From Malacoraja senta (Eukaryota): DNA of 64,000 nucleotides. Positions 27,415 through 58,889 of this stretch are shown here, piece by piece. Under the pieces are notes generated by a model. The model searched no databases, was not told where the DNA came from, and worked only from the letters and a program-made list of their open reading frames with translations. The DNA lies in NCBI GenBank assembly GCA_038087875.1, contig CM075996.1, positions 1,800,001-1,864,000 on the forward strand, read 5' to 3'. The stretch's first letter is position 1, and the number at the start of each line of letters is the position of its first letter. The translations under genes were made by a program, and so were the position numbers.

Positions 27415-28610
27415 TTACAGAGCTTGCAGCAACTCTGAGCCTATGACCTCTAGTCGCTCTTGTGAAAACATCGTCTCCACATCCACTCTATCCAAGCCTT
27501 TCACTATTCGGTAAGTTTCAATGAGGTTCCCCCTCATCCTTATAAACTCCAGCGAGTACAGGCCCAGCGCCGTCAAACGCTCATCATATGTTAAGCACCA
27601 ATGAGATACCACCACTGGTGAAGTGACAGATATCACTAGTGGGTGGCACAGTGGCACAGCGGTAGAGTTGCTGCCTTATACAGCGCTTGCAGCTCCAGAG
27701 ATCCGGGTTCGATCCCGACTATGTGTGCTGTCTGTACAGAGTATGGGCTGTATGTTTCTTCCGAGATCTTCGGTTTCCTCCCACACCACACGCCAAAGAC
27801 CTACTGCTTTGTAGGCTAATTGGCTTGGTATAAATGTAAATTGTCTCTAGTGTGTGTAGGGTGGTGTTAATGTGCGGGGATCGCTGGTTGGAGTGGACTC
27901 GGTGGGCCGAAGGGCCTGTTGTCGTGCTGTATCTCTAAACTAAACTAAATCAGGACGACACCCCAGCTTATTCGAGGACCATTCAGTAGGCTGATAGGTA
28001 GAAGCAGGTTATCAGGAGGAGGACATTCGGCCCATCGAGACCGCCCACTGTTCTCTGAGCCAATGCAATTCATCTCTCTTCTTTCTACATTCCTAATATT
28101 CTTGTTTAAACAAAATCTATTGATCTGAAAATTAATTATTAATTGAGCAAACACTTATTGCTTTGTGGCCTTCAGGACATCAATGCTTTGATTCACAGAC
28201 CTGACAAGGCAAATAATTCATGATACGCAGACTTAAAATGAGCTTGACATTTCTATGATGGAATGTTTCCATGCATATACTTTTTTGGTCTCTTTAGACT
28301 TTGGAGATACAGAGCGGGAACAGAACCCCGAGTCCGCGCCGACCAGCGATCACCCCTGTACGTTGGCACATGAGGGATAATTAACCAATTTTTTCCCGAA
28401 ACCAATTACCGTATTGGAGTGTGCGTCTTTGGAGTGTGGGAGGAAACCGGAGCGCCCGGAGAAAACCCACGCAGGTCACGGGGAGAAGGTACAAACTCCG
28501 CACAGACAGCGCCCGTGGTCAGGATGGAACCCGGGTTTCTGGCGCTGTGAGGCAAGCAGCTCTACCCGCTGCACCGACCTCTCTTGCGGGGTAAATTCGT
28601 GACTGGTTCG

Positions 28611-28897
28611 CAAGTTCAAGTGAGTTTATTGTCATGTGTCCCTGATAGGACAATGAAATTCTTGCTTTGCTTCAGCACAACAGAACATAGTAGGCATTGA
28701 CTACAAAACAGATCAGTGTGTCCATATACCATTATATAAATATATACACACATGAATAAATAAACTGATCAAGTGCAAATAACAGTTAATTGGCTAATAA
28801 AGTTCAGTGTTTTGTCCGAGCCAGGTTTAATAGCCTGATGGCTGTGGGGAAGTAGCTATTCCTGAACCTGGTCGTTGCAGTCTTCAGGCTCCTGTAC
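28611..28897 (-). mobile_element. Short 3' copy of the same Rex1/Babar family as 46859-48170
   Basis: Near-identical to 46875-47131 (caagtgagtttattgtcatgtgtccctgatagg...ggctcctgta). Confidence 0.85.
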
Positions 28898-29414
28898 TCC
28901 ATCAATGCATTTCCAGATGGGGTTTTTTTCACAGGTGGTTGCAATTGATAGGAGAAAATTGTCATTGTGAAGTTGCGAAACGCGGACTAAGATATCTTAG
29001 GGGAGCTACGGGCGACAGACAGCATAAGAAACGTGTAATTAATTTCCCCTTTCCCACACCACAGCATATGAAATTGGACACGGGAATGCATTGAATGGCT
29101 TTAAGAGCTTTTATGATAATGCAATTAATGCCAAAGTAAGGTTAACTTTGAGGATTATAATAAACACTCAGGGATACATTACAAATTGACAACCCTAGAT
29201 TTTGTAGACACAACTGTAAATTAAGTGCATTACCAATCTCTGCTTCTTAAAGATGTGTTGAACACTCAAGTGAACAGTGACGAGCAAGGTGATGTCTAAT
29301 TTTAACTCAACCTTGTGCTGGAACGAGGACCCACTGGTGTTGAAATAAGTTCCCTGTTTCCATTTTCTTATCTCAATGCTCAGTCTGAACTCACTATTCA
29401 TTCTGGGCAAGTCT

Positions 29415-29718
29415 TTAGTTTGGAGATACAGCGCGGAAACAGGCCCTTCGGCCCACCGCGTCCGCGTCGACCAGTCCCCGCACACTAACACTATCCTACA
29501 CACACCAGGGACAATTTACACTTATACCAAGCCAATTAACCTACAAACCTGCACGTCTTTGGAGTGTGGGAGGGAACCGAAGATCTCGGAGAAAACCCAC
29601 GCAGGGGTCACGGGGAGAACGTGCAAACTCCGTACAGACAGCACCCGAGGTCAGGATCGAACCCGGGTCTCTGGCGCTGAGAGGTAGCAACTCTACCCGC
29701 TGCCCCACTGTGTCACCC
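29415..29718 (-). mobile_element. HE1-type V-SINE, full length
   Basis: Reverse-complement copy. Further minus copies at about 2665-2965, 15923-16070, 21505-21645, 28295-28578, 36070-36268 and 40855-41148. Confidence 0.85.
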
Positions 29719-30170
29719 TGAGCGATTGGTTTCCCAGTACACTTGTTGTACACTCAGTAAACATATAAATCCTTTTTAATGACGGGAACATGGGACTAAC
29801 ATTGATGGAGAATTGTGGTCGGAATGGATGAGTAGGGCCGAATGGCCTGTTTCTGTGCTGTATGAGTCTATGTGGTTCTTGACCCTCGGAGAGTAGTGGC
29901 TCCTAAAATGATGATTGGGTTTAATATCAAGGTGTGGAATTACGGTCCACGCTCAAATTCCTTCATCAACAGCATTTAAATGCCATTTGCCAGGCAGCAC
30001 GGTGGGGCAGCGGGTAGAGCTGCTGCCTCACAGCGCCAGAGACCCGGGTTCGATCCTGACTACGGGTCCTGTCCGTACGGAGTTTGTACCTTCTCCCCGT
30101 GACCTGCGTGGGTTTTCTCCGGGTTCTCTGGTTTTCACCCACACTCCAAAGACGTGCAGGTTTGTAAGTT

Positions 30171-30308
30171 CTTCTTCTCGCGTATGGCGTGCACAGCCTA
30201 AAGTTGTAGAACAACTTGTTCTATTTGATCTTATTTGATTGTGCACGCCGGGTCGATTGCATTCGTCGAAACAGGGCGGACCAGGTGAAGGTTGCAATCT
30301 CCCACCCC
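30171..30308 (-). mobile_element. 138-bp non-autonomous retroposon with a 5' HDV-like ribozyme, a 3' stem-loop and a short (GAA)n tail, nested in an HE1-type SINE (possibly Ingi/Vingi-dependent)
   Basis: Interrupts an otherwise contiguous HE1 SINE. Flanked by an 11-bp TSD GTTTGTAAGTT (30160-30170) / GTTTGCAAGTT (30309-30319). The minus strand ends ...GCCATACGCGAGAAGAAG. 10-bp stem GGCGTGCACA (30186-30195) / TGTGCACGCC (30240-30249). Confidence 0.85.
30255..30308 (-). ncRNA. Minimal HDV-like (CPEB3-like) self-cleaving ribozyme, 54 nt
   Basis: Minus strand reads GGGGUGG GA GAUUGCA ACC UUCACCU GGU CCGCCCU GU UUCGA CGAA UGCAAUC. P1 is 7 bp with a G1-U wobble, P2 is a perfect 7 bp, P3 is ACC/GGU, L3 is UUCACCU (CPEB3 has UUCACGU). 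J4/2 is CGAA with the catalytic-C position at 30265. P4 is reduced to a short loop. Confidence 0.8.
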
Positions 30309-32313
30309 GTTTGCAAGTTAATTGGCTTGGTATAAGTTGTAAATTGTCCCTCGTGTGTGTAGGATAGTGTTAATGTGCGGGGATCGCTGGTCGGTACAGA
30401 CTCAGTGGGCCGAAGGGCCTGTTTCCGCTCAGTATCTCTATACTAAACTACAGAACATGGATAGGATAAGTTTCAGTTTCGGTTTCTTCTCAGCAACCAT
30501 CAGGCTATTGAACACTACAAACACCAAGGCCGCACGGTGGCACAGCAGTAATGTTGTCAATGAGATAGATGACAGCTCAGGACCGCTCTCTAGTTGGTGG
30601 TAGGATGGTTCAGTTGCCTGATAACAGCCGGGAAGAAACTGTCTCTGAATCTGGAGGTGTGTGCGTTCGTTTTCACACTTCTGTACCTCTTGCCCGATGG
30701 GAGAGGGGAGAAGGGGGAGTGGCCGGGGTGAGACTGGTCCTTGATGATGCTGCTGGCCTTGCCGAGGCAGCGCGAGGTGCAGATGGAGTCGATGGAGCGG
30801 AGGTTGGTTTGTGCGATGGTCTGGGCTGCGTCCACAATTCGCTGTAATTTCTTGCGGGTCTTGAACGGAGCTGTTCCCAAACCGTGCTGTGGTGCATCCC
30901 GATAGAATGATTTCTAGGGCGTATCTGTAGACGTTGGCAGGAGTTGTTGGGGTCATTGCCGAACGCCCTGCGTCTTCTAAGGAAGTAGAGGCTAAGTGAG
31001 CGGTGAAGCAAAGTTTGGCTGGAGGAATAAACCACAACGATGTTGGTGCCATTGCCTAATGAGATGTGAATGTGGAACAGGACATCGCCCGCTGAGCACC
31101 GCGGGGTGGAATCGCGTTCCAAGCCGCTCCGCCCATCCCCACAGCTGTTGACCCGCACCTGCACAGGATCTCAATGATAACGCTTGATCTGGCAGCTGCC
31201 ACCAGCTGTTGGAGAGGTCCTGCCCCTTCACAGAGGAACTCGCTTCGCCCCGTTTTATAAATCCTGTTGGCCTCCGCAGTTGGTGTTCATACGCTCATAG
31301 GTCAGAGGAGTAGAATTAGGCCATTCGGCCCATCAAGTCTACTCCGGCATTCAATCATGGCCGATCTATCTCTCCCTCCTAACCCCATTCTCCTGCCTTC
31401 TCCCCGTAACCCCTGACACCCGCACTAATCAAGGACCTGTCAATCTCCACTTTAAAAATACCCAATGACTTGGCATCCACCAGCAGAGACGATAGTGCCT
31501 TTTCAGAGACTTTTGGATAGGCACATGGATATGCAGGGAATGGAGGGATACGGATTATGTACAAGCAGGGAAGAGTTGTCCTCCTATCATGTTCGGCACA
31601 AACATTGTGGGCTAACGGACAATTATACTTGTGGACAAATTGTGGCCCTCAATATCAACTCCATCTGCACCTCACAGGAAAGCAGGCAAGATAATCAAGG
31701 ACCTTTCTCACCCCGGTCTTTCACTCTTCTCTCCGCTCCCGTCCGACAGAAGGTACAGAAGCTTGAAAGCGCGCACCACCAGACTCAGGAACAGCTTCTT
31801 CCCCTCTGTTATCAGGTCCTTCCGTAAGCTCGGGTGTAGTACCGATCATCCAATCTACCTCATGGCGGGCATTGGACTTTTTCTCTGGAACTATCATGCT
31901 ACATTGCTGAGAAACCATATTCTGCATTCTGGTATCTTTCTCTTTGCTCTACCTATAGTACTGGGGTCAAGGAAAGAGCGTTCACGTCGCGGCCCTGTTT
32001 CCACTGAATGAATGAATAAGTTTATTGTCCAAGTATTCACATACAAGGAATTTGCCTTGGTGCTCCGCCCACAAGTGACAACATGGAGTTAGGAGCGACA
32101 CATAAAAACATCTTTCCACCGCTACGCACAAGAAACGGAAGAACGCAAGACGCCATTGTATGCAGGTGCCGAGAAATGTGTTCAGCTCTGGCTGAACAAT
32201 CTCTAATCTTGTGAAGGGGACTCGATAAGAAGAAGGCCTATAGTACTTGTGTTTGGATCGATTGTACTCGTGTGCAGTTGTGTCTAGTTTCACTGGATAG
32301 CACGCAAACCTAA

Positions 32314-32502
32314 AGGGCCTGTCCCACTTGGGCGTCATTTGCGCGTCACGCAGATGGCACGCGAAGGTTTTGTACGTCCCAAAATCTTGGGGCGCCGTGC
32401 GGGACCGCGCCTCACTGCCTGCGTCACCACGCACCATGCGTGCATCACGTAAATGATGTCGCGTAAATTGCGCGCAAATGACTCCCAAGTGGGACTGGCC
32501 CT
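32314..32502. mobile_element. PIF/Harbinger-type MITE (same family as 27256-27414, opposite orientation)
   Basis: Same TIRs; TAA TSD (32311-32313, 32503-32505). Confidence 0.88.
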
Positions 32503-32939
32503 TAAGTCTTTCACTGCATCTTAGTACAGGTGGCGATAATAAACCAATACCTTTACTTCCAGGAAACTGTGCATTTGTACTCCAAGATCTGCACAATACT
32601 TATCAAATTCTACCCAGTGTGGTCCCAAAGTAGGAGCAAGACAACCATCTAGTGCTGTGACAGCAGTACTACAAGCAAACCCAGTCCCTGGGAATTCAAA
32701 GGCGCTGGGCCTGTACTCGCTGGAGTTTAGAAGGATGAGTGGGGGGGGAAACCTCACTGAAAGTTACCGAATAGTGAAAGGCCTGGCGAGAGTGGATATG
32801 GAGAGGATGTTTCCACTAGTGGGAGAGCCTAGGACCAGAGGGCACAGCCTCAGAATAGAAGGACGTTCCTTTAGAAAGGAGATGGGGAGGAATGTCTTTA
32901 GCCAGAGGGTGGTGAACCTGTGGAATTTATTGCCAGAGA

Positions 32940-33066
32940 GGGGATCACGACAGAAGCCTCCTCGTGGCGATCCCCGGAAACGACGACGTCAATTACGTCA
33001 ACATATTGGATGACGACAGATGCCAACTGCGAGCTCCATGTCGTCTGACACACGAGCGAATGAAAC
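32940..33066 (+). mobile_element. 127-bp non-autonomous retroposon beginning with an R2/HDV-like ribozyme core, nested in a CR1 3' fragment
   Basis: Interrupts CR1 tail sequence ttgccacagacggc. 8-bp TSD GCCAGAGA (32932-32939) / GCCACAGA (33067-33074). 5' end: GGGGATC (P1) ...GCC TCCTCGT GGC (P3/L3) GATCCCC (P1') GG (P1.1). 3' stem GACGACA/TGTCGTC followed by ACACACG. Confidence 0.75.
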
Positions 33067-57322: not shown

Positions 57323-58889
57323 GACTACCTCGCCATCCTCACCCCAGAAGCCAACGTCAATCCCTGCCCCCATAGCACAGAGTGCTGGAGTAACCAAGCA
57401 CTTTGCAACCCAAGTCCAATTTACAGCCAGTGGAACTACTTCGCCGAGCCTCAGCCGGTCGGACAGCATCTGTGGAGGCGACGTTTCAGATCGGGAACCT
57501 TCTTCAGACATCAACCTTCGCCAGCATTGACTCATTCTAGACAAGGCTGAGATTGAAGTTGGCTTTAACTAGGACGTGTGATCTTATTTGGGAGTGAAGT
57601 GGTGATTGGGACTAGGGGGGGTGGTGGCTGCACAAAAGCCACGCGTCCAGTTTCTCCCCCAACCTCATCTCTCCACCCATCGCCTCGCCTCCCTCCCCAT
57701 CTCAAAGCTACATCTCCAGTGCAACCCCCTGGATCATCTGGTGGAGTTTGGTTGCTGGAGCCACGGAGGAGAGGGTGGATGGTTTTGGATGCTCCAGCGT
57801 TGTCAGTGACCACCCTCAAACGCTTTTTGTGGTAAGGGCTTCCCGACCAGGTATTGGGAGACACAGAAAGCCCAGACCGCAAAAAGATCCGAGGGGGACT
57901 TGTCTTCTGTCTTCGTGGCCTTGCGGGTGGCGGTGATCCCTGCATCCATCCTCACTCAGCCTTCGCCGCTCTCGGCTTCAAGGGACCTTTCTCCCATCGC
58001 CGAGGACTTTCCTCGGGCTCCTTAATCTCTGCCGCTCGGTAAAGAAGTGCGCCGTGAGTCCCCCGTCACACCATACCCCATCCCCATTGCCCACGGTGGG
58101 GCCAGCGCAGCTAGCTAGACCATTCTCCCTTGCTCTCGCATTCGACTTCATTCCCCCCCCTCCCCTCTCTCTGTCTCTTCCCCGGCTCCCTCCCCGCCGC
58201 TGCTCCTCTCCCTCTCGCAGTCTGGTGAATCTGCGTAAAAAAAGCTTCTAACCTTCAACCTGAATCAGTTCATTAAATAGCCGTGCGTGCGCATGTGCAA
58301 AGCGTCAAGGCACGTTGTTCTTAACCTATCGCGTCCGCTCCTTGTAAAAGGCTCAGCCTCTTCAAGACACCCTTTGCGAGCCGGGCTTCAGAAACTGTCC
58401 CCCCCCCGCCCCCCTCCCTGCCTACCCACAGCCTTGACAAGCCACCTACCCGCGCCAACCTTCCATCCCCAACCCTTTGGCAAAGATGAACCCACCCTCG
58501 CACACCTTGCCAACCAGCACAGCCTCCAACGTGGGTCACAAGATCCACGCCCATCTACCAAAGGGTTTCGACACCACCCACCCCACCCCCCCCCCCCAAT
58601 GGCACAGCCGACACCACCGCTTTCCAATCCCCATCCATTCCTCACCCTCCCACACGTTCACCTCCCGCAACCCATCGGACATTGGCTTCCCCCCCCCCCA
58701 AACGCCTCTCTCCAATCTCATCTTCCACACAATCTCCCACAAGCCATTCGACCCCGCGCTTCTGCAAACCCGCCGCAGTCCTCTCCTTGGTACCACCCAG
58801 CCAAGAACCATTTGCTCACCGTCCTCCCTCTCCCTCTCCCTCTCCCTCTCCCTCTCTAGCTCATGGGTTTACACACTCGCCCCCCCCCA

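Follow-up and report, generated by a model that had tools for sequence, protein, structure and literature searches.

Long interspersed nuclear elements (LINEs) that end in a ribozyme, together with their internal-deletion derivatives, are known from R2 of insects and L1Tc/NARTc of trypanosomes, according to the accessible parts of the sources. In the available text of Kojima 2018 (PMC5786205), bipartite non-autonomous LINEs arise from the RTE, Ingi, Vingi and R2 clades; the ribozyme-bearing clades are given in that text as R1, R2, R4, RTE, Ingi as well as LOA, Vingi not being among them. Ribozymes like that of hepatitis delta virus (HDV) but without P4 are known from metagenomes and gut phages and cleave in vitro, as the accessible portion of the theta-ribozyme preprint describes. 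Here we analyze a 64,000-nt stretch of the Malacoraja senta genome (GCA_038087875.1, contig CM075996.1, positions 1,800,001-1,864,000), called the window, in whose coordinates all positions below are given. A 138-nt insert at 30171-30308 on the minus strand belongs to a retroposon family that we label S. S is very probably a non-autonomous retroposon formed by internal deletion of a ~3.1-kb LINE, named LINE G, a relative of Vingi-like LINEs with apurinic/apyrimidinic endonuclease (APE) and reverse transcriptase (RT); a ribozyme would set the 5' end of S, and the LINE RT would mobilise it.

Organization of the S copy in the window

On the minus strand, the S copy runs from 30308 (G1) to 30171 over 138 nt, as read directly. 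Its parts and surroundings, including the target-site duplication (TSD), are as follows.

30309-30319, minus strand: upstream TSD copy AACTTGCAAAC, adjoining G1; read directly and found by automated search
30160-30170, minus strand: downstream TSD copy AACTTACAAAC; read directly and found by automated search
30255-30308, minus strand: predicted P4-less HDV/CPEB3-type ribozyme, element positions 1-54; from pairings, covariation and model R1 (see below)
30308-30302 with 30279-30273, minus strand: P1, GGGGUGG/CCGCCCU, with the pair G1-U36; read directly
30301-30300, minus strand: J1/2, GA; read directly
30299-30293 with 30261-30255, minus strand: P2, GAUUGCA/UGCAAUC; read directly
30292-30290 with 30282-30280, minus strand: P3, ACC/GGU; read directly
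30289-30283, minus strand: L3, UUCACCU; its C at 30284 stands in place of the G of the family majority
30272-30271, minus strand: GU after P1; read directly
30270-30266, minus strand: 5-nt loop UUCGA replacing P4; read directly
30265-30262, minus strand: J4/2, CGAA, with the putative catalytic C at 30265
30227-30254, minus strand: part derived from the LINE G 5' untranslated region (UTR), element positions 55-82; the match to the near-full-length LINE G copy extends past the ribozyme (L121 and L124 against S copies)
30186-30249, minus strand: long hairpin in the ViennaRNA fold
30171-30209, minus strand: part common to the LINE G 3' terminus, element positions 100-138; from alignment of L095, L097 and L109-L111 with S, and translation
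29990-30159, plus strand: first half of the host repeat; very high word depth in four runs, and read directly
30320-30440, plus strand: second half of the host repeat; limits approximate

The sequences AACTTGCAAAC and AACTTACAAAC form an 11-nt duplication with one mismatch, on which the automated TSD search agrees with the direct reading. A first-pass annotation of this DNA had given the same insert bounds and the same 11-bp TSD, and every pairing and joint that it listed (P1, P2, P3, L3, the GU, the 5-nt loop and J4/2) is present in the sequence. The remainder, which it described as a 10-bp stem-loop, CCAUACG and (GAA)n, reads the same in the sequence and in the minimum-free-energy fold. In the ViennaRNA prediction, the 10-bp stem pairs positions 60-69 (30249-30240) with 114-123 (30195-30186) around an inner 7-bp stem, and the fold of the whole 138 nt contains P1, P3 and the 10-bp-stem hairpin all together. 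The 3' end consists of CCAUACG followed by (GAA)n.

The flanks of S are part of a very high-copy repeat, as judged by word depth in four runs. Contigs from other runs connect 30160 straight to 30309 and thereby represent the empty site, which, with the high repeat depth, bears out the view that the insertion split a pre-existing repeat. ARAGORN predicts no tRNA in this host repeat. The repeat had been annotated as an HE1 short interspersed nuclear element (SINE), and no HE1 reference sequence was found in the accessible parts of the PMC5786205 supplement or of PMC5499810.

S is a high-copy retroposon family with a fixed 5' end

A similarity search of the same genome with S returned 934 first-look candidates, and all 40 that were scored are full or near-full length with 96-100% identity. 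At up to 3 mismatches, a 28-mer from the 5' core (positions 10-37) has 9,140 genome matches and a 28-mer from the 3' core (positions 103-130) has 10,238, with 0 for the reversed-pattern control in both cases. The ribozyme core is present in approximately nine-tenths of the S copies having the 3' end, and the near-equal counts of the two cores indicate that 5' truncation of S is rare.

The ends were analyzed in 51 copies, comprising 31 from the similarity search and 20 spaced along the listed chromosome-1 exact matches to the G-type 28-mer (defined below). The start GGGGTGG is found in 46 of the 51, and the other 5 carry a single substitution. In 38 of the 51, a TSD of 9-15 nt (mode 12, at most 1 mismatch) ends precisely at the base before G1. 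The tails are (GAA)n of variable length. The first-pass annotation had proposed to look for further copies of the 138-bp insert with 5' ends fixed at G1 and TSDs that vary, and this is the pattern observed: thousands of copies, a constant start next to differing flanks, and duplications differing in both length and sequence. Two pairs of copies (L029/L030 and L016/L023) have their flanks in common, and they are thus segmental duplicates rather than separate insertions.

Two other element classes were considered for S and rejected. A miniature inverted-repeat or other DNA transposon is incompatible with the missing inverted repeats, the variable TSD length and the (GAA)n tail, and a tRNA-derived SINE with the missing small-RNA head. 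No tRNA, 5S, 7SL or snRNA family of Rfam was detected in 28000-32500, and ARAGORN likewise found none.

Covariation supports the predicted ribozyme fold

S contains the nested double pseudoknot of HDV-like ribozymes, with P1, P2, P3 and P1.1 in the canonical strand order, and a J4/2 with C and then two A. We compared it with other ribozymes of the same genome in an alignment (A1) of 18 sequences from six families (S and families A-E), which covers about six lineages and whose structure was drawn knowing the HDV fold. Standard pairs are formed in 94.3% of the pair cells, and sliding the 3' partners by 1-3 columns lowers the value to 38-48%. Compensatory two-sided changes are found in 16 of the 24 pairs (P2, 6 of 7; P1, 3 of 7; P3, 2 of 3), and none of 500 shuffles matched the covariation score. 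All 17 distinct rows of A1 keep the C-G pair of P1.1. In J4/2, C44 is nearly invariant and A46/A47 are invariant, while the second base varies among G, U, A and C. The covariation in P1, P2 and P3 that the first-pass annotation had proposed to look for is therefore present across families.

Furthermore, a covariance model (R1) was built from 13 non-S ribozymes (alignment A2). With filters off over 10 kb, it matches exactly 30255-30308 on the minus strand from end to end at 22.3 bits (rough E of 5e-5), and the next background match reaches 10.0 bits. Rfam scans gave no match on S, either in the 4.5 kb of 28000-32500 at E<=10 or in the whole window at E<=1. The Infernal comparison with the Rfam CPEB3 model (RF00622) suggested earlier hence came back empty, and S lies outside RF00622 as defined by its gathering score of 35 bits. 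Among 61 S copies, the variants common to at least 5 fall, inside the ribozyme, only at positions 8 (J1/2), 25 (L3), 32 (G>A), 41 (loop) and 45 (the second J4/2 base). The change at position 32 turns U-G into U-A with the U5 pair kept, and no common S variant disrupts a helix.

The G of L3 is conserved in HDV-like ribozymes, where it partners the L3 U at the metal site. At this place (element position 25, 30284) C is found in the window copy and G in the S family majority. Exact 28-mers genome-wide number 2,414 for G25 (L3 UUCACGU) and 111 for C25, the window type, and four other runs, in their reads and contigs, likewise show the G-type as the majority letter at 30284. The first-pass annotation was right to caution about this letter, and the window copy belongs to a minority C25 subfamily; the G25 majority implies that the master of the S family has the canonical L3. 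As to their distribution, 2 of the 100 listed C25 copies (of 111) are on contig C1, which is ~20% of the assembly, and many are clustered within a few megabases on C2, C3, C4 and C20, some being the segmental duplicates mentioned above. The first 100 listed G-type places are all inside the first 97 Mb of C1.

LINE G shares both termini with S

Some copies with the exact 3' core of S and without its exact 5' core consist of unrelated sequence followed by only the final ~40 nt of S. A variant of this 3' end, TGATCTACAACTTTAGGCTGTGCACGCC, has 668 genome matches at up to 1 mismatch. In longer copies (L109-L111 and L095), the variant is the end of an open reading frame (ORF), translating as ...WLTLNRIRT...CDCGHPDQTIPHIVNDC..., with a TAG inside S positions 109-111. 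The C-terminus encoded by this ORF, which belongs to LINE G, contains a CxCG...H...C motif and shows 37% identity over 78 aa to the homologous place in the C-terminus of LINE A, a sister LINE described below. S positions 100-138 are the same as the 3' end of LINE G, with the stop codon of the ORF included: they hold the last LINE ORF codons, the TAG stop (positions 109-111), GCTGTGCACGCCATACGC and then the (GAA)n tail.

A near-full-length LINE G copy of ~3.1 kb is located at about 194036881-194039950 on the plus strand of G000:C1, with its parts collinear on one strand. Its 5' end is an S-type ribozyme without the first 8 nt, with G25 and a J4/2 of CUAA, followed, as in S, by AACCCG.GGTGCACAA.CAAATA.GAT. 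Then comes an endonuclease N-terminus, LNVAGMS..K.E...D...LQETH (LNVxGxS...LQETH), and downstream a G-type RT and a G-type C-terminus. S and LINE G thus share the 5' terminus as well, on this single G copy without the first 8 nt. Two longer S variants (L107 and L108) are 5'+3' fusions made of the same LINE G parts. With both termini common to LINE G, S is an internal-deletion (bipartite) non-autonomous LINE and not a SINE transcribed by RNA polymerase III. The search for an autonomous-type LINE with both termini, proposed in the first-pass annotation, accordingly ended at LINE G, in decayed copies, while its label "SINE" has to be dropped for an internally deleted LINE derivative without a small-RNA head.

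Several other searches around LINE G gave negative results. The ribozyme is absent from three of four predicted LINE G 5' regions. Two loci ~3.2 kb upstream of LINE G 3' ends were tried as G 5' ends and proved unrelated in sequence, and four LINE matches with ~50% identity to LINE A, taken as G candidates, proved to be family F. A search for a LINE in which a ribozyme identical to that of S is followed by non-S sequence gave 60 pattern matches and no LINE, most of the matches being an S deletion subfamily (...GCAATCAAAT...).

The two arms of the 10-bp stem of S derive from opposite LINE G ends: one, GGCGTGCACA, lies just after the ribozyme, and the other, UGUGCACGCC, lies just before the tail. 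Full-length LINE G RNA could form a 5'-3' panhandle, which might matter for replication or for the origin of deletion derivatives.

Proposed origin of the 5' end and alternative explanations

On this basis, S would retain the 5' ~80 nt or more of the LINE, that is, the 54-nt P4-less ribozyme and the start of the 5' UTR, together with its last 39 nt, in which the ORF end is followed by a short 3' UTR and then by the (GAA)n tail. We propose that an S copy is transcribed within a longer host or read-through transcript. The ribozyme would then fold and cut just 5' of G1, leaving an RNA that begins at the first element base with the ribozyme still complete; such a cleavage is suggested by the fold, by conservation within the family and by the fixed 5' ends in the genome. 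Finally, the LINE RT would recognise the common 3' end or tail, and target-primed reverse transcription into a staggered nick would produce the TSDs of 9-15 nt. Target-primed reverse transcription is established LINE biology.

RNA data consisted of three contig runs and a single raw poly(A) RNA-seq run, the latter from a related organism. In run X24, read pairs over S with the first mate minus are ~1.3-1.9 times as frequent as those with the first mate plus, and the flanking repeat is nearly equal. This skew could be an orientation bias of S copies within transcripts or S-specific RNA.

A number of observations weigh against the proposal. All scored copies of LINE G have decayed, their longest open frames measuring 406-436 aa, and they do not reveal the enzyme source for the young S copies. 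The continuity of the G000:C1 copy comes from the coordinates of separate searches and 401 nt that were read; the LINE A protein gave no tblastn hit on its 5' region, where the endonuclease motif was spotted by eye. R1 misses S with default filters and recovers it only with filters off, RF00622 gives no match on S even at E<=10, and the statistics on covariation are on the generous side, with few independent lineages and the HDV fold known beforehand. In the poly(A) run, no pile-up of molecule starts or ends is seen anywhere on the stretch, G1 included, and 154 reads continue beyond G1 into unlike sequence. These two RNA results weigh only weakly, since the data separate neither strands nor the many copies that contribute reads, and RNAs with 5'-OH ends may escape a standard library. 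Finally, a dozen or more independent insertions of the C25 subfamily show exact G1 ends, each with a TSD of its own, so that either cutting persists in C25 ribozymes or there is another way of setting the 5' end. These insertions are the strongest internal argument that cleavage may not alone set the 5' end, or that C25 retains activity.

The leading alternative, though we consider it unlikely, sees in the ribozyme-like head a module with a structural or promoter role that lacks nuclease activity. The 5' end would then come from an internal promoter at G1 or from full-length reverse transcription, and RNA stability, protein binding or translation would account for the retention of the fold. 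The exact 5' ends that the C25 subfamily nonetheless yields and the RNA reads without a start pile-up at G1 are consistent with such a module, and the 77 nt of L1Tc/NARTc serve as promoter and ribozyme alike in the accessible accounts. A promoter role is, however, compatible with cleavage. Moreover, the L3 UUCACGU, the P1.1 C-G pair and the C and two A of J4/2 are kept across families whose helices have changed fully, sister families reach 64 bits on the model of a proven ribozyme, and the S subfamily variants spare stems and core, all of which weighs against this alternative. That S is an ordinary SINE or a DNA-transposon fragment with HDV-like pairing by chance is barely credible: Rfam gives no match on S and helices of 3-7 bp are easily found, but the covariation of P1, P2 and P3 and the match of R1, trained on other families, at the exact coordinates contradict a chance fold, and S further has no tRNA, 5S, 7SL or snRNA head, a TSD of variable length, a (GAA)n tail without inverted repeats, and both its termini in a LINE.

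Sister ribozyme-bearing families in the genome

The Rfam CPEB3 model, applied genome-wide, gave 56 matches at E<=0.01 among the 59 candidates scored of 102,231 first-look candidates. Of these matches, 39 are above the curated cut-off, and the best among the 59 scored reaches 64.2 bits. Families A-E score 36-64 bits on RF00622, compared with the gathering score of 35.

LINE A is ~3.2 kb long and bears the ribozyme at its 5' end, with G1 adjoining the TSD in three copies (ATCACAACCT, ACCTTAGTAAT and ACAGAACAAAA). It has one ORF, in which Pfam recognises only Exo_endo_phos and RVT_1, with intact open frames of 1008 and 1014 aa. The tail is ACGAAAAGAAGAAG, and the 3' end reads ...ACACGAAAAGAAGAAG. 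The LINE A protein has homologues with 50-63% identity in amphioxus, sea urchin, Anolis, fishes and insects; the contigs that bear them are in many cases about 3.1-3.3 kb long. The Vingi-type organization (a compact single ORF with APE and RT and no RNase H) is present in LINE A; LINE G was read as fragments.

LINE F has about 50% amino-acid identity to LINE A. Its head is HDV-type, with L3 UCCCCGU and the same P3 (ACC/GGU) as S, and its 3' end, ...GGACTCGAAGAAG, is also carried by B elements. The LINE F 3' UTR (L092, L093 and L115-L118) ends in ...GAGATTGCAACGGACTCGAAGAAG. It contains an 11-mer, GAGATTGCAAC, that recurs unchanged at S positions 9-19, where the 5' strand of P2 lies; the identity may be chance. 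Family B consists of short elements of about 175 bp with a P4-less ribozyme, whose 3' end matches LINE F; intact copies outside the window measure ~137-179 bp and have TSDs.

The Rfam CPEB3 model has two matches in the window, at 31955-32023 and 32929-33000, where two further ribozyme-headed elements are found.

31963-32236, plus strand: family B retroposon; G1 adjoins the TSD CCTATAGTACT, and the tail is GATAAGAAGAAG
32940-~33067, plus strand: third, older ribozyme-headed short element, inserted in another repeat

The family B copy scores 28.1 bits on Rfam CPEB3 and 41.6 on R1, and its ribozyme is interrupted between UUCCAC and AUCUUUCC by an unrelated ~108-nt insert. The element at 32940 has P1 GGGGAUC/GAUCCCC, P3 GCC/GGC, an HDV-type L3 (UCCUCGU) and GG after P1, scoring 25.8 bits on Rfam CPEB3 and 29.6 on R1. 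Of the 802 first-look candidates for its family, 40 were scored; they show 72-89% identity (window copy aside), and most start at G1.

Family D is nearest in sequence to the mammalian CPEB3 consensus. Its copy L042 is identical to that consensus at 54 of 67 positions, P2 and P4 included, as counted on the alignment. Another family D copy, L044 (G000:C3:83740660-83740738 region), is 253 bp long and has a TSD and an A-rich tail instead of (GAA)n, which suggests a different LINE partner or tail type. Elsewhere in the window, an ordinary conserved microRNA gene, the mir-129 precursor, is located at 57817-57892 on the minus strand (76.3 bits, gathering score 48.6).

Relationship to Vingi elements and the mammalian CPEB3 ribozyme

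The printed 5' ends of Vingi-2_Gav, Vingi-4_Crp and Vingi-1_BF, together with a Vingi-2_SPur region, contain the blocks AGCGTTC(A/T)CGTCGCG, CC(C)TGTCAG and CTGCGAAT(T/C)CT in the accessible part of the PMC5786205 supplement. Families A and D, like the Rfam CPEB3 consensus, contain the same three blocks. In the accessible part of that supplement, the alligator SINE2-1_AMi ends in ...GGACACGAAAAAGGAAAGGA, close to the LINE A tail. S and LINE G differ from Vingi in being without P4. The 5' blocks of LINE A equal the printed Vingi 5' ends and LINE G is related to LINE A; the earlier guess of an "Ingi/Vingi-like" LINE as driver therefore fits in its Vingi-like part, on the strength of 5' nucleotide blocks and the G-A relationship. 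The first-pass annotation had also stressed the closeness of S to the mammalian CPEB3 core; the link is carried far more strongly by families A and D than by S.

These comparisons lead us to a tentative proposal, which we hold to be nearly but not quite evenly balanced: CPEB3-type ribozymes would be the ancestral Vingi 5' terminus across deuterostomes, the mammalian CPEB3 ribozyme would be a domesticated LINE 5' end, and the 54-nt P4-less form would suffice in vivo to set where a vertebrate retroposon begins at its 5' end, over thousands of retrotranspositions. The agreement of L042 with the CPEB3 consensus extends to helices where pairing alone should matter, and it bears on the origin of the CPEB3 ribozyme. 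Vingi traces are reported among human repeats in the accessible part of the source (X12_LINE). Together with the sister-family scores and the Vingi 5' blocks from crocodilians, amphioxus and sea urchin, they make this origin directly testable. A literature search found no paper joining CPEB3 and Vingi, Kojima 2011 and Ruminski 2011 being outside its reach, and the on-topic literature on Vingi and ribozymes, in its accessible parts, draws no link between the two. The accessible part of a 2026 review describes Vingi-1 with its native 5' UTR as now in use as a gene-insertion tool; an unrecognised self-cleaving module in that 5' UTR would, if present, matter for such designs.

Comparison with known systems

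S adds a high-copy vertebrate case of a ribozyme-terminated non-autonomous LINE. It also adds an example of a P4-less ribozyme that occurs naturally within a mobile element of a eukaryote, minimal forms having come earlier from metagenomes and phages in the accessible reports.

The trypanosomatid pairs NARTc/L1Tc and RIME/ingi are alike in that, as the available accounts have it, a LINE and its internally deleted partner share an HDV-like ribozyme 5' end that frees the RNA from co-transcripts. According to the same accounts, NARTc/L1Tc differ in being of the Ingi clade, in living in protists and in having a 77-nt head that is also a promoter (Pr77). S has a vertebrate host, a CPEB3-type sequence without P4, a length of 138 nt and about 9,000 copies. 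The short internally deleted elements of R2 in Drosophila are similar as well, being internal-deletion elements in which a self-cleaving ribozyme is retained at the 5' end and the protein-binding part at the 3' end in the accessible text of PMC3414825. R2, however, is site-specific in ribosomal DNA and uses a restriction-like endonuclease, whereas S is dispersed and its partner is APE-type.

Vingi LINEs resemble the proposed partner of S as compact single-ORF APE-type elements of ~3.1 kb without RNase H, such as Vingi-2_Gav with 3128 bp, and they too have 5'+3' deletion derivatives (the Vingi-1_EE derivatives, SINE2-1_ACar and SINE2-1_AMi), according to the available portions of PMC5786205 and PMC13708176. 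The mammalian CPEB3 ribozyme (RF00622) has the same fold as S, the L3 UUCACGU of the S majority, GU after P1 and J4/2 CGAA. S differs from it in the sequences of P2 and P3, the lack of P4 and the lack of an Rfam match; S is the terminus of a multicopy element, and the CPEB3 ribozyme is a single conserved intronic locus. Finally, drz-Mtgn-1 and the theta ribozymes are double pseudoknots without P4 that undergo self-scission in vitro. In the accessible descriptions they come from metagenomes and phages and adjoin tRNAs, whereas the ribozyme of S is the head of a vertebrate retroposon and has CPEB3-type core letters.

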